Virus record (IMG/VR): IMGVR_UViG_2681813421_000009 | From: a virus | Lineage: Duplodnaviria > Heunggongvirae > Uroviricota > Caudoviricetes | DNA length: 13,965 nt | Strand: one strand, 5' to 3' | Part shown: one piece after another, positions 1-13,965 of the stretch | How positions within the stretch are numbered: the first letter of the stretch is position 1 | Layout: each line of letters starts with the position of its first letter | The notes under the pieces: model-generated | What the model was told of the DNA's origin: nothing | Seen by the model: the letters and a program-made list of their open reading frames with translations, nothing else | Databases searched by the model: none | Translations under genes and position numbers: made by a program

Positions 1-1269
1 ATGCCAAAACTCACAGATATGCAGATCCGCGCATGGATAAAGGCGGGAGACAGATTTGATGGCAAGGCAGACGGCAACGGCCTTTATATTTGCTACCCCA
101 AAAACTACACAGTCCCGTTCTGGCGATTCCGATATAAGCTCGCAGGAAAACAGCGGGCTATGGTTATCGGCTCTTACTCCGAACTGTCACTATCAAAAGC
201 CAGAGAAACAGCAAAAGAGCTGTCAGCCAGAGTTGCTCTTGGCTATGACGTAGCAGCAGAAAAACAGGAACGAAAAGCTGAAGCACTGGCAAAAATGGAG
301 GCTGAGAAAAACGCCATGCGCGTTTCAGATCTGGCCGCCGAATACTTCGAGCGACAGATACTTCCGAGATGGAAACATCCCGATATCCTTCGCCGGAGAA
401 TTGATAAGGATATTAACCCCTGCATTGGGCATATGAAGGTAGAGGACGTTAAGCCACGTCACATTGACGACATGTTAAAAGGTATCGTTGACCGAGGAGC
501 ACCAACGATAGCAACAGATGTATTACGCTGGACACGCCGTATCTTTGACTATGGGATAAAACGCCACGCTCTGGAGATAAACCCTTGTTCAGCGTTTGAA
601 GTATCTGATGCTGGTGGTAAAGAGGTTTCCCGCGACCGTTGGCTAACTCGCGATGAGCTTATCAGGCTATTCGAGGCTATGCGCACCGCAAAAGGATTCA
701 GCCGCCAGAACGAACTGACATTTAAGCTATTGCTGGCACTATGCGTTCGTAAGATGGAGTTATGCGCCGCACGATGGGAAGAGTTTGATTTAGATGGTGC
801 GGTATGGCATTTGCCGGAAGAACGCAGCAAAAACGGAGACCCTATTGATATACCTCTACCTTCCCCAGCCGTTGAATGGTTGAGAGAGCTACACACCTTT
901 TCATGTAATAGCGCATGGGTGCTTCCGGCCAGGAAGATGCAAAACAGAATGATCCCACATATTCAGGAAAGCACTTTACCCGTAGCACTGGCTAAGGTTC
1001 GCGCCGAAATGCCGGATGTGCCTAATTTCACGATTCACGACTTCCGACGCACCGCACGTACTCATTTAGCAGCATTGGGTGTTGATCCTGTCGTGGCGGA
1101 ACGATGCCTCAATCATCGCATTAAGGGCGTAGAGGGGATTTATAACCGTCATCAGTATTTTGATGAGCGTAAAGCAGCACTGGCACAGTGGGCAGATCTG
1201 CTGGTGGCACTGGAAAGCGGGAAAGACTACAACGTAACGCCATTCGATAAAGCCCGGAGGCAAATGTGA
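1..1269 (+). CDS. int: P4-family tyrosine integrase (site-specific recombinase)
   Basis: 422-aa ORF. C-terminal catalytic region carries the tyrosine-recombinase H-x-x-R box (HDFRRTARTHL) and a downstream Tyr-containing segment (GIYNRHQY); overall size and layout match P4/CP4-57-type integrases. The ORF begins at window position 1, so upstream att/tRNA context is not visible. Confidence 0.9.
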   Translation: MPKLTDMQIRAWIKAGDRFDGKADGNGLYICYPKNYTVPFWRFRYKLAGKQRAMVIGSYSELSLSKARETAKELSARVALGYDVAAEKQERKAEALAKMEAEKNAMRVSDLAAEYFERQILPRWKHPDILRRRIDKDINPCIGHMKVEDVKPRHIDDMLKGIVDRGAPTIATDVLRWTRRIFDYGIKRHALEINPCSAFEVSDAGGKEVSRDRWLTRDELIRLFEAMRTAKGFSRQNELTFKLLLALCVRKMELCAARWEEFDLDGAVWHLPEERSKNGDPIDIPLPSPAVEWLRELHTFSCNSAWVLPARKMQNRMIPHIQESTLPVALAKVRAEMPDVPNFTIHDFRRTARTHLAALGVDPVVAERCLNHRIKGVEGIYNRHQYFDERKAALAQWADLLVALESGKDYNVTPFDKARRQM

Positions 1270-2387: not shown

Positions 2388-2606
2388 ATGACAGTACACA
2401 AGCCAGCATCATCAGCTATCCCAACAACTGGATACATCCGTCGCTTTCGCATGCCGGAATTGCTAGGTGTTTCACTGCCTACTATTGATAGATGGGTTAA
2501 AAATGGCACTCTTCCACGCCCAGTGAAGCTAACAGATAACGTGACTGCGTTTGATGCGGTGGAAATTAATAACTGGCTGGCAGAACGCCGCGGGAAGGTG
2601 GCCTGA
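2388..2606 (+). CDS. alpA: AlpA-family (phage/prophage) transcriptional regulator, helix-turn-helix
   Basis: 72-aa ORF; the segment RFRMPELLGVSLPTIDRWVKNGTLPRPVKL is the characteristic AlpA HTH pattern. Purine-rich stretch (GAGAGG) upstream of the ATG; position after the integrase as in CP4-57/P4-like islands. Confidence 0.85.
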   Translation: MTVHKPASSAIPTTGYIRRFRMPELLGVSLPTIDRWVKNGTLPRPVKLTDNVTAFDAVEINNWLAERRGKVA

Positions 2607-3037
2607 TGGAAAAGAAAAACCGCCCATTACAGGCGGCTAATTCAGATATTCGCGTATCTGATATTACGCCCCTTACAAAATCCCTTCAAGCACCAAAGCG
2701 CACACCGAAAAAGCATCGTGCCCGAGTCTATATGCTGCGTACTGGTATAGAGGGATGGACAGAAAATGACATTCTTCGCTACTGCCGTCTGTCTTCTGGT
2801 CGTAACTATGCAACAGAGTTAGAACGCCAGCTTGGAATCACTCTGGAGCGTATCGACGAAAAGAATCCTGATGGTATCGGAACACACCTTCGCTACCGTT
2901 TCTCCTGCCGTGGTGATGTTCTGAAAGTGATCACTCATGTTAACCATCTTGCGAACATAAATGATCACAACGGACTTTCTCAGCAGGAAATTGCCGACAT
3001 TCTGAAACTCTACCCGGACGCGTTTAACGCCGCCTAA
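2606..3037 (+). CDS. hypothetical protein
   Basis: 143-aa ORF; ATG overlaps the alpA stop (TGATG), good RBS GGGAAGGTGG at 2592-2600. Basic N-terminus (KRTPKKHRAR). No recognisable family. Confidence 0.6.
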   Translation: MEKKNRPLQAANSDIRVSDITPLTKSLQAPKRTPKKHRARVYMLRTGIEGWTENDILRYCRLSSGRNYATELERQLGITLERIDEKNPDGIGTHLRYRFSCRGDVLKVITHVNHLANINDHNGLSQQEIADILKLYPDAFNAA

Positions 3038-3049
3038 CGGAGACTAAAA

Positions 3050-3883
3050 ATGAACATCGAAAAAAGCAGATTAATTTCTGAGGCCGCCCCTCATCTGAAC
3101 GCCTCTCTGGGCACAATTAACGGTAATGAATTTGCCGCAATTGTCCCGGTTATTTCTGGTCATATAGGCGGGCGTGAAACCAATATTGTTAGCGCAAAAG
3201 CGTTACACAAAGCGTTGGGCGTGGGAAAAGACTTCTCTACATGGATCACTGATCGCATCTCTGAATATGACTTCACCATTGGGCACGATTACTCAGTCCA
3301 TAAAACAATTTCCCCAAATTTGGGGAAAAGCCCGAATGACGCGGCTTACAGCAAGATTAAGCAGTCTGGCAGACCCGGCAAAGACTATCTGTTAAGTGTC
3401 GGAATGGCGAAAGAACTGGCAATGATCGAACGCAATGATCAGGGTCGCGCTATCCGCCGTTATTTCATCCAGTGCGAGAAAGAATTACAGCGTAGCGTGC
3501 CTGAAATCGCCGCCCGCTATCGTCGCCAGCTAAAAGCCCGTATCAGTGCCGCAAACAACTTCAAGCCAATGTGCGATGCGCTGAATATGGCCCGTGCCGA
3601 GATGGGGAAAACGACGCAGCAACACCACTACACAAACGAGAGCAATATGATTTCTCGTATCGTTCTTGGTGGGCTAACTGCTAAGCAGTGGGCGCGGATA
3701 AATGGCTATTCTGGCGAACCTCGCGACCATATGAACGCAGAACAGCTTGAGCACCTCTCATATCTCGAAAGCACCAATATCACGTTAATTGATATGGGCA
3801 TGGAATATGAGCAGCGCAAAGGAGAACTCACCCGCCTGTCGCAACGCTGGCTCGCCAAGCGTCTGGAGGCGGTCCATGTTTAA
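3050..3883 (+). CDS. phage antirepressor (AntA-like N-terminal domain plus KilAC domain)
   Basis: 277-aa ORF. SAKALHKALGVGKDFSTWITDRISEYDFTIGHDYSV resembles the AntA/Bro-N pattern and DYLLSVGMAKELAMIERNDQGRAIRRYFIQCEK resembles the KilAC (ANT) domain. RBS ACGGAG 8 nt upstream. Confidence 0.8.
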   Translation: MNIEKSRLISEAAPHLNASLGTINGNEFAAIVPVISGHIGGRETNIVSAKALHKALGVGKDFSTWITDRISEYDFTIGHDYSVHKTISPNLGKSPNDAAYSKIKQSGRPGKDYLLSVGMAKELAMIERNDQGRAIRRYFIQCEKELQRSVPEIAARYRRQLKARISAANNFKPMCDALNMARAEMGKTTQQHHYTNESNMISRIVLGGLTAKQWARINGYSGEPRDHMNAEQLEHLSYLESTNITLIDMGMEYEQRKGELTRLSQRWLAKRLEAVHV

Positions 3884-4058
3884 GCCGACAGGAACACCAC
3901 AACCTCAAAAACGCTACAAAGATGCCCACGGAGCACTCGTTACTGTCGAAAGCGTGTCTCACAACCGAGTGACGTTTTATCGCGACGGGTATCAATCGCC
4001 ATGCGTACAACCGCTGGCACGTTTCATGAAGGAGTTCGCGGAGGTTAACAAATGCTAA
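3876..4058 (+). CDS. small hypothetical protein (60 aa)
   Basis: ATG at 3876 overlaps the upstream stop (ATGTTTAA), indicating translational coupling. The six-frame ORF from 3789 is probably an N-terminal over-extension. Confidence 0.5.
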   Translation: MFKPTGTPQPQKRYKDAHGALVTVESVSHNRVTFYRDGYQSPCVQPLARFMKEFAEVNKC

Positions 4059-4713
4059 CCGCCCAGAAGAAGATATTTTCACTGGCTGGTATGTCGCCAA
4101 AATCCAGCAATATGACAGCAAAGTCAGACATTAATACAGCAGATACAAGCAAAGTTTATCATTTGCTGGTGGTAGGAGCGGATGCCTTAACTATGTCAGA
4201 AATTACGGTCGATGGTGTTAGCGTTGAGAAGGTCAGCGGCTATGCCAGAGAATTTCTGGTCGTAGATGGCTTTCTCTGCTCGTGTAGTGACTCCACAAAA
4301 ACCTTCGTCCACGCGCGTGACGTTAACGAAATGAGCGCGATGTACTGTGCTTCTGGTTCTTCCAATAGTGAGTTTTCGGAGTCCATAAAAAAGAGCTTGC
4401 CGTTATGCGGCAACACGGTTTATGGTTATAAGGCACCTCATAAAACGGGTGCCGGGATTGGCGTCCTAAAAATTCTGAAGGCGACATATGACGCGCCAAG
4501 CGTCTTTTTTTATGTCGTAGGTCTGACTCACCCATTTTTTGGGCGTTGGTGTATAATCCAGCGCCTTTGTCAATCAATGGTGGCTCAGGCGGGGGCTTCT
4601 TCGGAAGCGCCGGTATCCTTCAGAGCCGGTTACGCCAACCCTGTCTGGGCTACCACCAGCGAAATTGGCGTTTCCGGTGGTAGCGTAACCTGCTATCTGA
4701 AGGAGGCTGCCAC
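4052..4713 (+). CDS. hypothetical protein, 3' boundary unresolved (six-frame ORF runs without a stop to 5119)
   Basis: ATG at 4052 overlaps the upstream stop (ATGCTAA). The N-terminal ~150 codons look protein-like, but the 3' part crosses a strongly structured region and the RBS-supported Icd-like gene in another frame. End coordinate is a placeholder, not an observed stop. Confidence 0.3.
4595..4690 (+). ncRNA. candidate structured regulatory RNA upstream of icd (possibly C4/CI-type antisense RNA)
   Basis: Hairpin GCTTC-TTCG-GAAGC (4595-4608) with a UUCG tetraloop. Nested stem GGTTAC (4628-4633) / GTAACC (4685-4690) enclosing a perfect 9-bp stem GCTACCACC (4649-4657) / GGTGGTAGC (4676-4684). 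Located immediately 5' of the Icd-like gene. Confidence 0.3.
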
Positions 4714-4908
4714 ATGCTGGCTACTACCCCTACCCAAAAAACGCAATTTATCTGGATTATCGCCGCAGTTCGCCGCGATTGCCCGACAATTACCGCCAAA
4801 ATTCATCATATTGCTGCCGAGTCTGAACGCGATGCTCGCCGTTCTCTGGTGCGCGATCACGTCTGCTTTTTTGCTGGTCGTATCCGCATGGAGGTGGCAC
4901 ATGATTAA
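4714..4908 (+). CDS. Icd-like protein (host cell division inhibitor Icd family)
   Basis: 64-aa ORF with strong RBS AGGAGG at 4701-4706, 7 nt before the ATG. Sequence pattern FIWIIAAVRRD...ERDARRSLVRDHV.FFAGRI matches my recollection of Icd-like proteins of P1/P4-type elements. Confidence 0.7.
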   Translation: MLATTPTQKTQFIWIIAAVRRDCPTITAKIHHIAAESERDARRSLVRDHVCFFAGRIRMEVAHD

Positions 4909-5119
4909 AACCTACGATGTGCATATGGATCCCCTCGAACGCACAAGCCAGATCATCACACTGACAGAAGTGATTAACGACATTCTGGTGAGCAACTCTC
5001 CCTCACGAGACGAAAGACTGAAGGCGTTACTCGCGATATTGGATCTCGCCGTTCGTGACGTTCATTTCCTGCTGGAAGGTGGCGAAATGCCAGTAAAAAC
5101 GGGGGCAACCAATGAATAA
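4901..5119 (+). CDS. small hypothetical protein (72 aa)
   Basis: ATG at 4901 preceded by GGAGGTG (4890-4896) and overlapping the Icd-like stop (ATGATTAA). Same frame as the long 4052 ORF, but this internal start has its own RBS. Confidence 0.5.
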   Translation: MIKTYDVHMDPLERTSQIITLTEVINDILVSNSPSRDERLKALLAILDLAVRDVHFLLEGGEMPVKTGATNE

Positions 5120-5306
5120 CTCAATTAATACCCCTCGCCTTACGTCCGCACTTCAATTAATCGAGCAAGCAGCGGCTGTCCTGGTTGCTGTCAGTCTTTC
5201 GGCTGAAGAAATGGACGCTGCTGATGTCGTGGATGCGATTAAAGCGTGCTCATCTTTGGTTAACGATGCCCGTGCAGAGCTGGTAATTCTTGGTGGTGAA
5301 AAATGA
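5112..5306 (+). CDS. small hypothetical protein (64 aa)
   Basis: ATG overlaps the upstream stop (ATGAATAA); part of the coupled operon. Confidence 0.5.
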   Translation: MNNSINTPRLTSALQLIEQAAAVLVAVSLSAEEMDAADVVDAIKACSSLVNDARAELVILGGEK

Positions 5307-5566
5307 ATATCAACTTAATTTATCGTCATCCGTGTGAGCTGGAAATTGAATCATTGCTGGGGCGCGAAGAGCCATATCCAGACACATTCACTCCCGCAGA
5401 TTGCGCGACTGAACGGCTTACCAGAGCGCGCACAGGTCTGGTTCATGTGATGAATGAGATTATTCCCTCGGTGGGAGGGGAACAGGCGACAGTAATCAAT
5501 AGCTGGCTACAAAAAGTTACCTCCCTGATAGATATCAGTTTAATCGATGTGGAGAGTGCGAAATGA
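5303..5566 (+). CDS. small hypothetical protein (87 aa)
   Basis: ATG overlaps upstream stop (ATGA); RBS GGTGGTGA upstream. Confidence 0.55.
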   Translation: MNINLIYRHPCELEIESLLGREEPYPDTFTPADCATERLTRARTGLVHVMNEIIPSVGGEQATVINSWLQKVTSLIDISLIDVESAK

Positions 5567-5784
5567 CCAACATCCAGCTCATTGAAGCGCAATGTCGCAT
5601 CGAACAGGTTCAGACTGTTTTAGGGTTCTGGCTTGAAGGGGCCAGCCCAAGCAACAGAGACAAGTTAATGATTGGCGCGGTTATGTCACTGCTCAATGGC
5701 GTACCAGAAGCTATTCAGGAAGCGGACGAATTGTTGGGCAAATATGAGTTACAGAATCATTCAGGCGAGGCGAAACATGAATAA
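5563..5784 (+). CDS. small hypothetical protein (73 aa)
   Basis: ATG overlaps upstream stop (ATGA); RBS GGAGAG upstream. Confidence 0.55.
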   Translation: MTNIQLIEAQCRIEQVQTVLGFWLEGASPSNRDKLMIGAVMSLLNGVPEAIQEADELLGKYELQNHSGEAKHE

Positions 5785-6379
5785 TTTCTTAACTTTCCAT
5801 GCAGAAGCAACGCCTGGCGGCGTAAACATCATGTACCGCAGCAACGATGGCATGACAGAACGCGTTGAGGCCGTCTCATATATTGATGCCGTAAATCGTC
5901 TGGATGCCGGGGATTATGACGATAAACCAGATGAAGGTATGTCAATACATCTCGCTATTGCCGATGGCGGCAACCAGGGATATTTCGATTACACATCACA
6001 GCATAACGTCATTATGTGGAGATGGCTGATCGCAACAGTATTCATGCTGGAAATGAGAGAGGAAAACGGCACCGTCAGCATTATTGATGACAGTGGCAAT
6101 CATTCCGTGGTTTCTGTTTATTCCAATGGCATCGTCGCCATGCCGCTGTATCCAGTAGCAGAGCGCCTCGCTATGGCAAACAACATTGAGGGCGCAATGA
6201 TCGAGAAATATGGTGTTGATGTCGGAACAAAGAATGCCATCATTTTTTACAGCAACATGTTCGATGTCGAACAGGGAACACTCACTTCGTTTGGGCGAGA
6301 AGTGCTTGCCGATCTTCACAACAGCTTTATTGCCGAACTAAACGAAAACGGCATCCCAGAAGCACCAGTGACGCACTAA
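5777..6379 (+). CDS. hypothetical acidic protein (200 aa)
   Basis: Internal ATG at 5777 (MNNFLTF...) overlaps the upstream stop (ATGAATAA) and has RBS AGGCGAGG. The six-frame ORF from 5672 is probably an over-extension into the preceding gene. Confidence 0.55.
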   Translation: MNNFLTFHAEATPGGVNIMYRSNDGMTERVEAVSYIDAVNRLDAGDYDDKPDEGMSIHLAIADGGNQGYFDYTSQHNVIMWRWLIATVFMLEMREENGTVSIIDDSGNHSVVSVYSNGIVAMPLYPVAERLAMANNIEGAMIEKYGVDVGTKNAIIFYSNMFDVEQGTLTSFGREVLADLHNSFIAELNENGIPEAPVTH

Positions 6380-6391
6380 ACGGGGGCCAGA

Positions 6392-8743
6392 ATGCGAAAC
6401 ATTGATCTTATCCGTCAGGTTATCAGTGCGTCTGAAAACAACTGGCCTCATGTGCTGGACTGCCTGAACATAAATGTCCCTGACTCTCCGCGCCGTCATG
6501 CTCCCTGCCCTGCATGTGGGGGCAAAGATCGATTCCGGTTCGATGACAACGGGCGCGGTAGCTTCATCTGTAATCAGTGCGGCGCTGGTGATGGGCTGGA
6601 TTTAATTAAACGCGTAAATAACTGCGACACAACAGAGGCGGCGCTTCTTGCCGCTGATGTTCTGGGTATTGATTACCGGACAACGGAAACACCAGAAGCC
6701 ACCAGCCAGAAACGGGAACAACTGGAAACCGAGCGCCAGCGACGCGAACAGGAGCGCCTGAAAAGGGCAGAGAAGGACGAACAACAAAGACGGGATACGT
6801 TTTCCCGTCAGTTTGATGACATGCGCAGAAAGGCTGTAAACGGCAAATCTGATTATCTGGTTGCGAAAGGGGTAGGTGATTTTACATTCCCTGTGTTGCC
6901 CGATGGATCTCTGTTGCTGGCGCTGGTGGATAAATCCGGCGCAGTCACAGCAGCACAGACTATTACCTCACATGGTGAAAAAAGACTCCTGACAGGTTCA
7001 GCAAAGCGAGGGGCATATCACGCCATAAACGCACAGAAACGACCTCACAGCATCATAATTGCTGAGGGGGTGGCTACCGCCCTGTCGTGCCATTTAATTC
7101 GCCCTGACGCAATGACAGTGGCAGCAATCGACGCTGGCAACCTGTTGCCAGTAGCGGAAGTCATGCGCAGAACATATCCACAGGCACAAATCATCATTGC
7201 CGCAGATAACGATCACCAGCAAGGAAACTCCGAAAGTGGAGGGATCAACACGGGGAAAGATGCCGCAGAGAGGGCCGCTATTTCCGTAGCTGGCTGGGTG
7301 TCTCTGCCACCGACTGACTATAAAGCCGACTGGAACGACTATCACCAACAACACGGGCTGGCGGCAGCCACAGCAGCATTTAAAGATTCGATGTACCAGC
7401 CACGGGGGAAAGGGGCGCAGGTGAAAAATCACAAACAGTCAGTCGGGGCGCTGAATGAGATCAGTTCTGGCGAGGTGTTAAGCGATGATGAAATTGCTGT
7501 CCTCGAAGAAATCAACCGGACGTTTACGCATGTCACCATCGGCGGGAAACACAAGGTGGTGTCGCTAAAGCCTTCTCAAACCGGCGGTGTATCGCACGTT
7601 TTCGAGGATTTATCACAATTTCAGCATTATTTTCATCATAAACCGAGAGTCGCCAGAAAGCTGGCGGGATCGGCGTGGCTGTCATGGAGTGGGAAGAACT
7701 ACAAGCCAGGAGGCGTAGGATTTTATCCAGTACCAGACAAATGCCCTGACGATGTTTTTAATCTGTATGAGGGGCTGGCACTGGAACCAATTGAAGGAGA
7801 TTGCACGGTATACCTTAATCACCTGTTGCAGGTTGTCTGTGCCGGTAATGAAGAGGCATACCAATATCTTATCCAGTGGATGGCGCACATTATCCAAAAG
7901 CCTGATGAAAAACCGTCCGTGGCAATCGTGATGAAATCTGTCCCGGGCACAGGGAAAGGCACAACGGTTAAACCGCTGCTGCAAATACTGGGGCAGTACG
8001 CCGCCCACATTAACGGGGCGGGACATATTTCAGGGCGCTTCAATTCAATACTTGCTAACAAGCTACTGGTATTTGCTGACGAAGTGACGATCCACAAGCC
8101 GTCTGAAGCTGACAGACTTAAAGCGATTATTAGCGAACCGACGTTTAACCTTGAGCGCAAGGGAATTGATGCTGAACCAATGCCGAATTTTGCCCGGTTG
8201 ATATTTGCCAGTAACAGCACACAGGTATTACAGGCAGGGATAAGAGAGCGCCGCTATCTCGTGCTTGAGCCATCTCCTGAAAAAGCACAGAGCCGGGAGT
8301 ATTTTGATCGGCTGTACAGTTGGCTTAATGATGGCGGTGCCGCAAAGTTGCTTTGGCATCTTAAAGGGGTGGATCTCTCAGGTTTTGACCCTCAACGAGC
8401 GCCACAGACCGATGCCTTACGTGAAGAAATCTTGCTGGGGCTGTCTGGCGTTGAATTGTTTCTTTATGGCGAGCTAATCAATGAACCTCCGTTTAATGGC
8501 GAAGTCCGTTTGTTTGCAAAGGATATGGTTAGTCGATTTGTAGCGTGGTCGCTTGAGCGTGGGGAAAAGCTTAAAGAACCAGCTGCCAGATCACTACTGG
8601 GTAAATCACTTGCACAAATGGGGCTGGTGAAGCATGGAAGACCAGACCGAGGGAATGGCGTGTTCTACGAACTACCAGAGGTCGGAGTTCTACAGGCTGC
8701 GTTTGCCCGTCTGATCGGTATGGGGGGTTATGATGTTTTTTAA
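6392..8743 (+). CDS. P4-alpha-type primase/helicase (Zn-ribbon, Toprim primase, D5-like helicase)
   Basis: 783-aa ORF. N-terminal zinc ribbon (CPACGGKDRFRF...FICNQCG), Toprim motifs (IIIAEGVATALS and IIIAADNDHQ), C-terminal Walker A (VPGTGKGTT, about 7945-7970) and Walker B (LLVFADEV). RBS GGGGG upstream of the ATG. Confidence 0.9.
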   Translation: MRNIDLIRQVISASENNWPHVLDCLNINVPDSPRRHAPCPACGGKDRFRFDDNGRGSFICNQCGAGDGLDLIKRVNNCDTTEAALLAADVLGIDYRTTETPEATSQKREQLETERQRREQERLKRAEKDEQQRRDTFSRQFDDMRRKAVNGKSDYLVAKGVGDFTFPVLPDGSLLLALVDKSGAVTAAQTITSHGEKRLLTGSAKRGAYHAINAQKRPHSIIIAEGVATALSCHLIRPDAMTVAAIDAGNLLPVAEVMRRTYPQAQIIIAADNDHQQGNSESGGINTGKDAAERAAISVAGWVSLPPTDYKADWNDYHQQHGLAAATAAFKDSMYQPRGKGAQVKNHKQSVGALNEISSGEVLSDDEIAVLEEINRTFTHVTIGGKHKVVSLKPSQTGGVSHVFEDLSQFQHYFHHKPRVARKLAGSAWLSWSGKNYKPGGVGFYPVPDKCPDDVFNLYEGLALEPIEGDCTVYLNHLLQVVCAGNEEAYQYLIQWMAHIIQKPDEKPSVAIVMKSVPGTGKGTTVKPLLQILGQYAAHINGAGHISGRFNSILANKLLVFADEVTIHKPSEADRLKAIISEPTFNLERKGIDAEPMPNFARLIFASNSTQVLQAGIRERRYLVLEPSPEKAQSREYFDRLYSWLNDGGAAKLLWHLKGVDLSGFDPQRAPQTDALREEILLGLSGVELFLYGELINEPPFNGEVRLFAKDMVSRFVAWSLERGEKLKEPAARSLLGKSLAQMGLVKHGRPDRGNGVFYELPEVGVLQAAFARLIGMGGYDVF

Positions 8744-9986: not shown

Positions 9987-10139
9987 CAAAAACAGCGATT
10001 TTCTTTATAAGGTATGTTTTGCTCATCTGGCAGACGGAGGTATTCGCTGCGGTTTGGCACATAGCCCAGAACAGCAAAGAGTTTTACGAGACTTTTGTAA
10101 AATCCAGTGTACAAGGGCGTGACGTTTTTGAAGGTGAGC

Positions 10140-10158
10140 ACTACGAAATTTTCGTAGT
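10140..10158. promoter_or_regulatory. 19-bp perfect palindrome (candidate operator)
   Basis: ACTACGAAA-T-TTTCGTAGT centred at 10149 in the non-coding stretch between the repeat cluster and the cargo operon. No flanking T-run on either strand, so not a terminator. Confidence 0.3.
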
Positions 10159-10351
10159 TCAAAAAATAGCCTCTGAGATGTTGTTATGCCTGTTCAGCAA
10201 ACCATCCGCATAGCTGATCGCGAATCAAATTACCAATGGAGCCAGAAGCAAGGGCAGAACTGGAAAGCGCCTGCCGTGAAGAGTAATGCGACTCCATAAA
10301 TATAGTTTTTAGAGTCCATAAAAAAACTGTCAAAACCTGACATACAGAACG

Positions 10352-10384
10352 ATGCCACCAGCTACTGAACGGTGGCATTTTTTT
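10352..10384 (+). terminator. Rho-independent terminator
   Basis: Stem ATGCCACC (10352-10359) / GGTGGCAT (10371-10378) with an 11-nt loop, followed by a run of seven T. The opposite strand lacks a 3' T-run. Confidence 0.5.
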
Positions 10385-10480
10385 GTGCTATTTGTTTCAT
10401 ATTTTGCAATCACAATGATGAATGTTGCGTTTTATGAAACTATAATGACTGTTGTTTTATACAGTTCTAAGGGGGGCGTT

Positions 10481-10654
10481 ATGGCTATTTCAGTAAAGCC
10501 AGTATTGATAAGTGAGAAGCAAATGGAAGCGATAAAGAAAATTCAGGAGGAGCAGCGTAAAAAATCAGAGGTAGGAGTTGCGCCAACGATCCACGAAATT
10601 GCTCGGGGATTAATGGATAAGGCGCTGGCTTACACTTTAACTGGACGTGGGTAA
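10481..10654 (+). CDS. small DNA-binding-like protein (57 aa, possible ribbon-helix-helix fold)
   Basis: ATG at 10481 with RBS AAGGGGGG 5 nt upstream. The six-frame ORF from 10352 would overlap the terminator hairpin and has no RBS. The RHH call is a guess from size and charge pattern only. Confidence 0.5.
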   Translation: MAISVKPVLISEKQMEAIKKIQEEQRKKSEVGVAPTIHEIARGLMDKALAYTLTGRG

Positions 10655-10658
10655 ATTT

Positions 10659-12002
10659 ATGGCTACGTGGCAACAGGGTATTAATTCTGGTGGTTTTCTG
10701 GCTGGCATCGGTGCGCAAAATGAGAATGCGCCAAAGGCAAGCGACATTAACGCAACGCTTGGTCTGATCCGCGAAAACAATGAACTGGCTCGCTCAGGTG
10801 CAAATAACGTTGCTCTGACAGGTCTTCGTGGTCTGGCTGGAGTTGCTGACATTTATAAGCAGCAGCAACAGCAGGAACGTAAAGCGGCATTCCAGAAAGG
10901 TTATGCAGATGCTTATGCGTCCGGTGACAGGGAGCAGATGCGTAATCTTATTACAGCATTCCCAGAAGAGTTTGAGGAAGTCCGTAAAGGGATGAGTTAT
11001 GTCGATGATGCTCAAAGGGATGATTATGGCAATCTGGCGCTCAAAGCACAGGTAGCCTCATCGCTTGGTCAGGGCGCATTTGGCAGGTTCATGATGGATA
11101 ATGAGCAGGAGATGCGTCGTTTAGGTATCCCTCCAGAAACTATTGCTGAAATGCAGGTTAATGACCCGCAGGGCTTCCAGCATTTCGCAGGTAATCTGGC
11201 GCTGTTTTCTCTCGGTCATGAGAAGTATTTCGATATCAAAGATCAAATGGAAGGTCGTCGACTTGAGCAAGGGCGACTGGATGAAAGTATGCGTCAGGCT
11301 GACATGGAGAACGCGAGAGGATGGGCAAATATCCAGAACGCTCAACTAGACAGGGCTCAGCGAGCACAAATTCACTCAGATGAGATGGGATTGAAGCTAA
11401 TGGAGCTGGGGCAAAAAGGTAAGCCGTCAGCAGACTTAATTAAGGGATTAAATTCTGACATTACCAATTTTGGCAAAAATTATAACTCTGTCAGAGCGGC
11501 GGCAAACTCTCTGCAAGCCCTTAGCAAGGTAAATACTGGCGCTGCCCAACTTGGGATTATCTTCAACTACATGAAATCTCTTGACCCGCAGTCAGTCGTT
11601 CGTGAAGGCGAACAGGTTCAGGTAATGCGGTCTGATGGCATATGGGGACAAATCAAAGGATACATAGACCAGCTTAATGCTGGAAACGGCCTGTCGCAGG
11701 AGGCAAAGGATAACATTGTTAACGCCGCAAAAATCAACGCCAATGCTATGGGGCAGCAGTTTAACCAGCAGGTTGACGAGTATCTCGATACATATGGAGA
11801 AACTATTCCTCAGGGGCTAAGAAAAAGCCTTGAAAGAAGGAAAGCGAAGCTATTTGACGATGTTTCCGGGCAGCCTACATCACAGGCTGGCACTGGACAG
11901 GCAAAAGCGGCAACCGGAGGAATATCAGAAGGCGCAACGGCAACCAACCCTAAAACTGGTCAGAAAATCATTTACAGGAACGGAAAATGGCAGCAAATGT
12001 AA
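10659..12002 (+). CDS. hypothetical Gln-rich, coiled-coil-like protein (about 447 aa)
   Basis: ATG at 10659, 4 nt after the upstream stop; a GTG at 10647 is the alternative start. Contains a QQQQQ run and many Q/E/R-rich predicted helical segments. No catalytic motif recognised. Confidence 0.6.
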   Translation: MATWQQGINSGGFLAGIGAQNENAPKASDINATLGLIRENNELARSGANNVALTGLRGLAGVADIYKQQQQQERKAAFQKGYADAYASGDREQMRNLITAFPEEFEEVRKGMSYVDDAQRDDYGNLALKAQVASSLGQGAFGRFMMDNEQEMRRLGIPPETIAEMQVNDPQGFQHFAGNLALFSLGHEKYFDIKDQMEGRRLEQGRLDESMRQADMENARGWANIQNAQLDRAQRAQIHSDEMGLKLMELGQKGKPSADLIKGLNSDITNFGKNYNSVRAAANSLQALSKVNTGAAQLGIIFNYMKSLDPQSVVREGEQVQVMRSDGIWGQIKGYIDQLNAGNGLSQEAKDNIVNAAKINANAMGQQFNQQVDEYLDTYGETIPQGLRKSLERRKAKLFDDVSGQPTSQAGTGQAKAATGGISEGATATNPKTGQKIIYRNGKWQQM

Positions 12003-13792
12003 TCTTACCGGAAGGTTTTGTGCTCGATGAACAACCTGATAACTCACAGTTTCCTGATAGTTCACAGCTTCCTGATGGTTTTGTGCTTGATGCCCAACCA
12101 GAACAGCAGCAATCACCTTTGGTTTCACCAGAGGAAAATTCCAGACAGGAAAATGTTGTTAATAATGCTAACGGTTTCGACCGTTTTATGTATGGCGTTC
12201 TCAGTGGATTGATGGATGTTGGTAAAGGTGTTGGCCTGTTTCAGGATATGACACCAGAAGAGCAAGCCGCAATTCAGTCTCTACAGCAGAAGTTAGCGGC
12301 AAAACCATCAACCGCACAAGATGTTGGTGAGTTCGTTGGACAAGCAGCGCCATTTGTTAGTGGTGGTGGGATTATTTCTCAGGTTCCCAAAGGGGCGGCA
12401 AGACTGGCTGCCGCCGCAGGGCTTGGTGCTGGAGAAGGGGCTATTGTAGCCAATGGAACAAATAGCGATGTTGCTTCCGGCGCTGCTATTGGCGCTGTGG
12501 CTGGCCCTGTAGCCGAACTTGCTGGCCCTGCAATTAATAAAATAGCTGGGAAATTAACCAAGAAGAATGTTTCTTCGATTCCAGATATTGAGGGGATTAC
12601 TCCTGCCGAAGAGAAAATTCGTAAGTTATCTGCACAAGGCAACCCAAATCTTGCCTCTTCGCTTGAAGGGCTAGATCTAAAACCTCAGAAAGAAATTGTT
12701 GAGGCTGCAAATAGGCTTCATGTTGATTCAGTTCTTCCTTCTCATTTATCAGGAAATGAGCAATACCAAGCTGTAGAGCAAGCCCTAAAGTCACGGACAG
12801 GATCAGCGTTAAAAGCTCAAGAAGATAAAGCAATAAGCGAATTAGCCTCTAGTGCTGGCAAGATAATCGATGATGTTGCTGGTGCGCCAGATGCGTTAGC
12901 TATGAGCGAAAAATATATTTATCAGATAAATAGTAGAATGGAAGCACTAAAAAACCGTAGTGATCAGTTATATAAACGTGTTGATTCCGCTCTATCACCA
13001 AGAACAAAAGTCGAAGCAAATAACACAAGCACTATGCTGGAAAAAATCGCTGATGATTTAGGAGGGTGGGATAATCTTGACCCAATAGAAAAGCGAGTTT
13101 TTACAGCAATAAACCCCGGCCCAGATAGCATCCTAACGTATGCAAATTTAAACAGGCAAAGGCGTTTAGTTGGTGATGCCCTAAATAAAAAGCAGGGGCC
13201 ATACAAAGATGCTGATAAAGAAGCGCTATCAAGACTATATGGAGCTTTAGCTGAAGACCAAAAATCTGTCTTATCCAATACTGGATACTTGCGAGATTTC
13301 GAAGTCGCACAACGCCTTGTAGCTATGAGAAAAAACTTAGAAAGGCAAATGGTAAATCTTCGCGGGAAAACACTTAATGGGGATATAGCGTATAAAGTAA
13401 CGAATTCTCTTCAATCTATGGCAAAAGGTGATGCGAGAGGGTTTCGTGAGATTATGCAAAATACTCCATCAAGAACATTGCGAAGGGAGCTAGTAGGAAC
13501 AGCATTAAGAGATATGCTTTCCTCTGGGAAGCGTGGGGCCGACTTTAATCCATCTGGCTTCGCAGATTGGTGGCAAAACTTGCAACACAGTGGACAGCTA
13601 AAGACTTTGGCTGAACATTTGCCAAAAGAAACAATGAGCGGACTATATGATGTATACAAAGTTGCCAGAGCAATAAAAAATGCTAAAGCGCATGAAATAT
13701 CTACTGGTAAGCTGAATGAGTTTGTAAACAGATTTAATCGGGTAACAGCTCCATACGAACTAGCAGCAAAGGTAGTGACTCCAACTTACTGA
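11987..13792 (+). CDS. hypothetical large protein, 3' end truncated by IS1 insertion
   Basis: ATG at 11987 with RBS AGGAA, overlapping the upstream gene by 16 nt. N-terminal tandem motif [10 protein letters not shown] / [10 protein letters not shown], then a Gly/Ala-rich segment, then an AT-rich-encoded K/E/N-rich C-terminal region. Native sequence ends at 13770; the last seven codons (VVTPTY-stop) are read from the IS1 inverted repeat. Confidence 0.6.
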
Positions 13793-13965
13793 TAGTGTTT
13801 TATGTTCAGATAATGCCCGATGACCTTGTCATGCAGCTCCACCGATTTTGAGAACGACAGTGACTTCCGTCCCAGCCTTGCCAGATGTTGTCTCAGATTC
13901 AGATTATGTCGCTCAATGCGCTGAGTGTAACGCTTGCTGATAACGTGCAGCTTTCCCTTCAGGCG
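13771..13965 (-). mobile_element. IS1-family insertion sequence, partial (continues beyond window end)
   Basis: Terminal inverted repeat GGTAGTGACTCCAACTTACTGAT at 13771-13793 matches the IS1 right-end IR at 21 of 23 positions; the adjoining sequence matches IS1 with scattered substitutions. Confidence 0.9.
13786..13965 (-). CDS. insB: IS1 transposase InsB, C-terminal fragment (partial at window edge)
   Basis: Minus-strand translation of 13786-13965 gives [59 protein letters not shown]-stop, the InsB C-terminus as I recall it. Confidence 0.85.

Follow-up and report, generated by a model that had tools for sequence, protein, structure and literature searches.

A probable recombinational mosaic joined at a Gly/Ala-rich segment in an IS1-interrupted gp16-type ejection protein gene of an EcCIMP1-like island

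What is the gene near the 3' end of the IMG/VR record IMGVR_UViG_2681813421_000009, and why does its composition change part of the way along? The window (the whole stretch of 13,965 nucleotides (nt) from this record, filed under Caudoviricetes) contains there an open reading frame (ORF) of 601 amino acids (aa) at 11987-13792. A sequence-only reading of the locus took it for a protein in which a conserved N-terminal module is joined by a flexible Gly/Ala-rich linker to a swappable C-terminal module of foreign composition. The explanation favored here, with good confidence, is that the gene, part of the cargo of an EcCIMP1-like phage-inducible chromosomal island (PICI), encodes a third ejection protein of the P22 gp16 type, that it has been inactivated by an IS1 insertion sequence, and that it is a recombinational mosaic joined at the Gly/Ala segment.

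The 601-aa gene exists as an ORF but is an artefact of the IS1 insertion, which the sequence-only reading missed. Native sequence ends at 13770; the first base of IS1 (GGTAGTGACTCC...) is 13771, an 8-bp target duplication (GCAGCAAA) accompanies the insertion, and the last codons of the ORF (VVTPTY*) with its stop come from IS1. A transposase of the IS1 family is annotated at window-equivalent positions 13786-14483, with the last 342 nt of the gene beyond it, and the gene is annotated as a pseudogene lacking its C-terminus. The intact allele, present in PA45B and 41EC2, has 2118 nt and encodes 705 aa. The window holds the 5' 84% of the gp16-type gene, and this copy is inactivated by IS1 at 13770/13771. 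In FORC_031 the gene is interrupted 8 bp further downstream by a different element, of the IS3 family and itself containing a group II intron, so that two independent disruptions fall within one short stretch (13771-13965 in the window; ~18778 onward in the compared locus L002).

The assignment to the gp16 family comes from profiles, synteny and length. The ORF matches phrog_6704 (1.6e-163) and, over aa 112-599, phrog_770, annotated as 'DNA transfer protein' (2.3e-46), and its fold matches in BFVD include an 'Injection protein' and SLT-fused homologues. Its start overlaps the stop of the preceding gp20 gene by 16 nt, an overlap repeated wherever the start was compared (Kapi1, E212, the 55989 and M15 prophages and two metagenomic P22-like contigs); in Sf101 the gp20 and gp16-type genes abut without it. 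Close homologues in Kapi1, E212, Sf101 and two metagenomic contigs (homologues P0004 and P0009) are the last gene of clusters ordered coat...gp14-gp7-gp20-X. By the profile matches and this last position, the gene corresponds to P22 gp16 in both location and profile.

Likenesses to the gp16 proteins of P22-like phages (Lederbergvirus; gp16 of Sf6, HK620 and CUS-3, Sf101 gp13 and Kapi1_058) extend to the place of the gene as third in a gp7-gp20-gp16 operon overlapping the gp20 stop, to a length of 705 aa near that in HK620 (722 aa) and CUS-3 (719 aa), and to the PHROG 770 match, a Gly/Ala-rich region before a helical body, the lack of a strong transmembrane (TM) helix and extensive intragenic mosaicism. 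The differences are that a PICI, not a phage, carries this gene, that IS1 disrupts it, and that the allele joins a PEGFVLD-repeat N-module, as in Kapi1 and E212, to a body nearest that of Sf101 gp13, where an SLT domain takes the place of this N-module. No Pfam domain was recognized in the protein, and no enzymatic domain is present in this allele; a PDB sequence search gave nothing below E=0.2, and Foldseek against PDB gave nothing below E=0.5, hence no solved structural relative of the helical body. Weak Foldseek matches to spectrin and alpha-pore-forming toxins were not interpreted, and PF26808, precomputed on some homologues, could not be named, being absent from the local Pfam copy. The likeness to T7 gp16 and the T7-SP6 ejectosome is one of functional analogy, that of a largest ejection protein which completes the inner-membrane channel and whose modular N-terminus can carry a transglycosylase (PMC8954989); no sequence or fold match was found, T7 gp16 is much larger (1318 aa), and the enzymatic domain is missing here.

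The mosaic junction and base composition

Alignment of homologues, a check that the sequence-only reading proposed, bears out its claim of a mosaic protein with a junction near 12540; composition does not. Kapi1, E212 and E. coli prophages are 96-100% identical to the window in nucleotides up to codon ~145-180 (window ~12420-12535), and megablast matches to phages end at 12459 (Kapi1), 12513 (E212), 12531 (EC.P3) and 12535 (S.Kent 1-2-1). Codon by codon, identity to E212 is 96-100% (third positions 0.87-1.0) as far as codon ~180 and random-like (0.3-0.5) thereafter, that to Kapi1 falls to random-like at codon ~145-150, and third-position identity across the junction drops overall from 0.87-1.0 to 0.2-0.5. 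The Kapi1_058 protein is ~97% identical over residues 23-145 and 13-46% identical afterwards, collinear to its end; the C-parts that replace one another are collinear, homologous alleles rather than unrelated domains. Relative to Kapi1_058, the N-terminus also shows a 6-aa indel (FPDSSQ), and its predicted disordered beginning contains a tandem motif, LP[ED]GFVLD.QP, which recurs in homologue P0009.

The two parts of the protein differ in their relatives. The N-part (aa 1-188) finds only four phages by tblastn, at 86-94% identity; the C-part finds 36, belonging to many genera. From about residue 205-210 the body shares 58-62% aa identity with Sf101 gp13 and APC_JM3.2, both of which have different N-termini (an SLT transglycosylase in Sf101 gp13), and the body of a metagenomic phage is 74% identical. 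One body occurs with at least four N-terminal types (PEGFVLD-repeat, 'MKVTANGKTF', P22/ST104-like and SLT), to which fold matches add N-terminal LT_GEWL and M15 peptidase fusions, and the same N-module occurs with at least three bodies, 26-28% to 74% identical. Among 5426 complete E. coli genomes, 142 match the gene in total and 84 carry the whole of it, most of these full-length copies uninterrupted; the other 58 do not have it at 80% coverage or more, and most of those listed match only nt 67 to 473-545.

The idea of a conserved N-terminus and a swappable C-terminus thus describes close relatives but is reversed in the family at large, where the C-terminal body is conserved and the N-terminus exchangeable. 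Homologues were collected with the C-part as query. A library of 1.84e9 proteins gave 1115 representative clusters, nearly all of which align from query residue ~100-235 to the end and bear N-terminal extensions of variable length. Local matching among 168 homologues out of these covers residues 1-110 in 8 and the helical body in 167. In P22-like phages, gp16 and gp20 are described as the most variable, mosaically related virion genes in the part of PMC10883804 that cites Casjens and Thuman-Commike (2011), and ejection proteins are modular, with peptidoglycan-hydrolase domains swapping at the N-terminus (PMC8954989). Judged by these alignments, the gene is a recombinational mosaic, a well-mapped new instance of an established phenomenon.

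The Gly/Ala-rich stretch begins at residue 118 (codon 118 at 12338), just where the sequence-only reading placed it. Residues 118-187 are 47% G+A (20% Gly and 27% Ala, with 10% Val and 9% Ile), compared with 17% G+A in residues 188-595, and the best 70-aa window, with 33 G+A residues, was reached in none of 20000 shuffles of the protein. The drop in GC past ~12540 is numerically real, sliding-window GC being 0.55-0.59 across 12287-12510 and 0.35-0.46 thereafter, and codons 1-187 differ from codons 188-594 (0.483 versus 0.408, p=0.003); it is, however, not present at silent sites, and it does not mark foreign DNA. Codons 1-117, at 0.442, do not differ significantly from codons 188-594 (p=0.29), and GC at third codon positions (GC3) is 0.31 before and 0.29 after the junction (p=0.69), the difference residing in codon positions 1 and 2. 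Since GC3 is equal on both sides, the shift is an amino-acid effect: a local bump produced by GGN and GCN codons, not a change in background composition. A foreign, low-GC origin of the C-part is rejected on the same ground. The description of the C-part as rich in K, E, N and S is weak, these residues making up ~28% of it versus ~25% of residues 1-117 and ~16% of the Gly/Ala stretch. GC3 of the whole gp16-type gene is 0.296 versus 0.446 in gp20 (p=8e-7) and 0.41-0.54 in the other island genes; the silent-site boundary lies at the border between the gp20 and gp16-type genes, not within the latter. The case shows that a GC shift within a gene can be purely an effect of amino acid content.

Linkage to gp20 and the nature of the Gly/Ala segment

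The gp20 gene is itself a patchwork. Its residues 1-75 are conserved, and ~60 P22-like phages match the gene only over 10649-10892, at 86-88% identity; residues ~90-210 have diverged (13-53% identical to Kapi1), and residues ~210-447 are 93-100% identical to the Kapi1, 55989 and M15 alleles, in a block contiguous with the N-module of the target gene. The C-half of gp20 and the N-module of gp16 are inherited as a pair in the A20 island, a metagenomic phage, Kapi1, 55989 and M15; the Ec-050 island keeps a gp20 N-half that is 96-100% identical, but there the C-half is replaced together with the downstream protein. This linkage fits the contact suggested for P22 by AlphaFold3, between gp20 residues 256-435 (the C-terminal 'plinth') and gp16 residues 1-205 (bioRxiv 10.64898/2026.09.03.749273).

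AlphaFold2, run with an alignment of 123 sequences, predicts an all-helical body with a predicted local distance difference test score (pLDDT) above 90 for residues ~231-580; residues 1-63 and 120-202 score below 50, and the Gly/Ala segment 27-41. Directly upstream of the body, a 50-aa window with at least 40% G+A occurs in 79% of the 123 homologues and one with at least 35% G+A in 93%, compared with 0.8% inside the body, and Gly151 is 93% conserved, although glycines align easily in Gly-rich regions. A second Gly/Ala segment follows at residues 596-645, past the IS1 insertion, and glycine-zipper-type motifs occur at 137-180 and 601-640, where Kyte-Doolittle hydropathy peaks at 1.37, below the usual 1.6; a reading of the Gly/Ala segment as a classical TM helix was set aside on account of this low hydropathy. 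In P22 gp16, too, no TM helix is strongly predicted, although the protein binds membranes and accounts for the density that spans the cytoplasmic membrane (PMC10883804; bioRxiv 10.64898/2026.09.03.749273). The flexible linker of the sequence-only reading draws support from the low-confidence prediction and is left unproven by the retention of the segment, with its conserved Gly, across most homologues. Because it is a conserved feature of the family, the segment is probably more than a passive linker; that it is specifically a conserved, conformationally plastic functional element is given somewhat less than even confidence.

By homology with P22 gp16, the protein would be packaged in the capsid and then ejected, its N-terminal module would dock on the gp20 tube at the C-terminal domain nearest the membrane, and the helical body with its two glycine-zipper-like segments (aa 118-187 and 596-645) would associate with the cytoplasmic membrane and complete the channel. 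The N-terminal module (aa 1 to ~150-180) moves with the 3' half of gp20 and in its DNA is almost identical to alleles of Kapi1-like and E212-like phages and prophages; within or just after the Gly/Ala segment it is joined to a helical body (aa ~205-705) of a different lineage of the same family. Breakpoints cluster at the Gly/Ala segment, perhaps because the gp20-compatible module there parts from the body, so that hybrids would stay functional.

Island setting and ejection-protein cassettes

The window is 100% identical to sequence of E. coli L1_E925, in which the island sits between yicC and dinD. No capsid, tail or lysis genes were found in the island by Pfam, PHROG or the RefSeq annotation of the whole island; an integrase, an AlpA-type regulator, a primase/replication module and a size of about 15-18 kb are traits of PICIs and are present. 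In all, 5166 of the 13965 bases of the window align at 93-95% identity to EcCIMP1 of E. coli MP1, in blocks at 2596-6377, 6392-7226 and 10081-10629, and some protein accessions are identical in the two islands (e.g., WP_000181940.1 and WP_000476150.1). The locus is thus best described, from its gene content and alignments, as an EcCIMP1-like PICI, in whose cargo region the ejection genes lie. Pick et al. (ISME J 2025, PMC11773190) showed experimentally that the P22-like phage Kapi1 mobilizes EcCIMP1, the only pair for which helper-induced excision, replication and transfer of such an island have been shown (PMC11773190).

Both islands lack capsid, tail and lysis genes, share the regulatory and replication module at 93-95% identity, and have the order int, HTH (helix-turn-helix) regulator, AntA, Ash, primase, small ORF, 'DNA transfer' genes and PerC. 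They differ in integrase and attachment site (yicC-dinD in the window island, thrW for EcCIMP1), in the C-terminal domain of the primase (DUF5906 versus DUF927) and in the cassette, which consists only of gp20 and the 705-aa gp16-type gene in the window island and of gp14-gp7-gp20 with a 906-aa SLT-type protein in EcCIMP1. The coordinates of these features are collected in Table 1.

Table 1. Features of the window and of compared loci (L numbers denote compared loci)
Feature	Coordinates	Strand	Basis or remark
P4-type tyrosine integrase	1-1269		Pfam/PHROG matches, RefSeq annotation
HTH regulator, AntA antirepressor, Ash and Icd-like genes			Pfam/PHROG matches, RefSeq annotation
Zinc-ribbon/Toprim/DUF5906 primase	6392-8743		Pfam/PHROG matches, RefSeq annotation
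Conserved leader with 57-aa ORF (10481-10654)	10081..10654	+	Precedes ejection cassette; 93-97% identical to EcCIMP1 and A20 island
Terminator-like hairpin with T-run	10361-10376		Terminator scan; after 245-aa ORF region
gp20-type ejection protein gene, 447 aa	10659..12002	+	Pfam Inj_translocase 2.5e-73; phrog_917 4e-132
Gene for gp16-type third ejection protein: native portion, codons 1-594 plus two bases of codon 595	11987..13770	+	PHROG profiles, synteny
Tandem LP[ED]GFVLD.QP motif (aa 7-21 and 28-42)	12005..12112	+	
Gly/Ala-rich, mildly hydrophobic segment (aa 118-187)	12338..12547	+	GxxxG and small-xxx-small repeats; local GC peak
Mosaic junction zone, clustered independent breakpoints	12420..12600	+	Megablast ends, third-position identity drop
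Conserved all-alpha-helical body (aa ~230-594, on to aa 705 past IS1)	12674..13770	+	AlphaFold2, homologue matches
IS1 element end, truncating gp16-type gene	13771..13965	.	Junction sequences, 8-bp target duplication
Cassette region compared, window	10081-13770		
Cassette region compared, L011	11408-16533		
Cassette region compared, L012	11400-16620		
Cassette region compared, L013	9400-13610		
Cassette region compared, L014	9400-14746		
Cassette region compared, L017	12598-17944		
131-132-aa polytopic membrane protein gene, L004	19124-19519	-	Convergent, directly after gp16-type gene
131-132-aa polytopic membrane protein gene, L011	16138-16533	-	Convergent, directly after gp16-type gene
131-132-aa polytopic membrane protein gene, L013	13212-13610	-	Convergent, directly after gp16-type gene

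Across islands the cassette is either gp14-gp7-gp20-gp16 or gp20-gp16 alone, and it follows one conserved leader whether the island lies at yicC-dinD or at thrW; two integrases and two primase types are represented. The leader is found in 455-521 of the 5426 complete E. coli genomes; the 57-aa ORF it contains, directly upstream of the cassette, has no family match, PHROGs included, and RefSeq annotates instead a 100-aa ORF starting at 10352. The A20 island has gp14-gp7-gp20 and the same 705-aa protein, in the order DUF2824, P22_gp7, Inj_translocase and then the 705-aa protein. The EcCIMP1 and strain 32-4 islands combine gp14-gp7-gp20 with the 906-aa SLT-type protein, that of ABU 83972 combines them with a P22-type 'injection protein' pseudogene, and that of Ec-050 has gp20 and a 701-aa protein of another type. 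The gp16-type gene is thus as varied in islands (705-aa, 701-aa, 906-aa SLT-type, P22-type) as in phages. The authors of the EcCIMP1 study noted the 'DNA transfer' and DUF2824 genes and proposed a role in packaging (PMC11773190); apart from that paper, literature searches found nothing explicit on satellites encoding ejection proteins. We infer that the 'DNA transfer' genes of the islands may make up a full P22-type ejectosome cassette.

EcCIMP1 also confers superinfection immunity against Kapi1, of unexplained cause (PMC11773190). A convergent gene for a polytopic membrane protein of 131-132 aa directly follows the gp16-type gene, in the position that the superinfection-exclusion gene sieA occupies in P22; it is present there in PA45B, 41EC2, A20, ABU 83972, Ec-050 and the window's own strain. 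The 131-aa protein has no PHROG match, and a weak Pfam match to Bax1-I (E=2e-4, below the cut-off) was not used. PADLOC found no defense-system match for the ejection proteins or for this neighbor, its sole match being an ImmA/IrrE-like gene in the PA45B variant. Its position makes the membrane protein a possible source of superinfection immunity in EcCIMP1-type islands; against this, it is not found in strain 32-4 or in EcCIMP1 itself, which has a different, 232-aa hypothetical protein at that place.

A broader proposal, which at present seems rather unlikely but is open to experiment, is that EcCIMP1-like PICIs (roughly 8-10% of complete E. coli genomes) keep an exchangeable P22-type ejectosome cassette from which the satellite may furnish captured helper capsids with a DNA-delivery channel of its own, or by which it may hinder channel assembly by a superinfecting helper phage. 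The Gly/Ala junction would then mark the edge of the gp20-compatible module through which satellite and helper alleles can be mixed. If the satellite does supply its own channel, this could change the range of recipients that can be entered or allow escape from SieA-type exclusion; interference with the channel would account for the superinfection immunity given by EcCIMP1. The presence of such cassettes in a common E. coli satellite family, with a diversity mirroring that of P22-like helpers, is of more interest than the mosaic itself, and it suggests a testable route to the superinfection immunity or transfer biology of these islands.

Competing explanations and minor observations

Might the boundary in the gp16-type gene be only apparent, the N-terminal ~180 residues being under very strong constraint and the rest evolving fast, without recombination? 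Ejection proteins do diverge quickly, accepted gp16 types in P22-like phages sharing only 22-26% identity with each other (PMC10883804), and the alleles are collinear throughout; but the abrupt fall extends to synonymous sites, the body has much closer relatives (Sf101 at 58%, a metagenomic phage at 74%), some with unrelated N-termini, and the breakpoint differs by partner (12459, 12513, 12535). Constraint without exchange is thereby largely refuted already and must be considered highly improbable. An account closer to the sequence-only reading accepts the exchange and treats the segment as a passive, flexible Gly/Ala linker between independent domains, the C-terminal one being foreign, swappable and of different compositional origin. 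It would explain why pLDDT is below 50 for aa 120-202, why breakpoints cluster in the segment and why all-position GC drops after it, but it is unlikely given that GC3 is the same on both sides and the C-parts exchanged all belong to one family as homologous alleles. The segment, moreover, is rich in Gly, Ala, Val and Ile with GxxxG repeats, not in Ser, Pro, Thr or charged residues, a compositionally equivalent stretch recurs at this position in 79-93% of 123 homologues, Gly151 being 93% conserved, and the protein has a second such segment at aa 596-645.

Somewhat less likely than not is the possibility that the gp20/gp16-type pair is a decaying prophage remnant without a role, in which the mosaic merely records past phage history. 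The IS1 in this copy and the independent IS3-family insertion in FORC_031, the absence of gp14 and gp7 from the window island and the pseudogene in ABU 83972 would all fit decay. Less easily explained in this way are the occurrence of the cassette behind the same leader with different integrases, attachment sites and primase types, a gp16-type diversity that mirrors that of phages, the frequency of the leader, the uninterrupted state of most of the 84 full-length copies, and the mobilization of EcCIMP1 by a P22-like helper together with its unexplained immunity (PMC11773190).

The preferred explanation, that of a gp16-type ejection protein gene carried as island cargo and recombined at the Gly/Ala segment, has points weighing against it in turn. 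BLASTP against a P22-type gp16 (ST104) was not significant (E=0.2), the 25% identity being collinear and confined to the N-terminal 190 aa; the family assignment therefore rests on profiles, synteny and length, and the lack of significant pairwise similarity fits the 22-26% identity among accepted types. The low pLDDT of the Gly/Ala segment leaves its membrane role an inferred one, DeepTMHMM predicts no TM helix for Kapi1_058 ('outside'), and no classical TM helix is predicted. E212 is a partial exception to the linkage with gp20, having the same N-module and a diverged gp20 C-half, and simple physical adjacency could be why the gp20 3' half is inherited with the N-module. Finally, the window copy is broken and its island is without gp14 and gp7, so that no function can be claimed for this copy.

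The significance of the mosaic itself is modest: it is a clean, well-located case of the ejection-protein mosaicism already documented for P22-like phages. What it adds is that independent breakpoints cluster inside a conserved Gly/Ala segment and that the N-module is usually inherited with the membrane-proximal half of gp20, which gives natural chimera boundaries for probing the gp20-gp16 contact.

Elsewhere in the window, the gene model of the 355-aa 'Ash family' ORF at 4052-5119 is uncertain because the region is split differently in the annotation of other strains, into a truncated Ash pseudogene and a separate Icd-like cell-division-inhibitor gene (9052-9908 in L002). Between a 216-aa ORF and the HTH regulator gene, the stretch 1950-2400 is strongly AT-rich (GC 0.29-0.33) and apparently non-coding, and GC skew is negative directly upstream of it.

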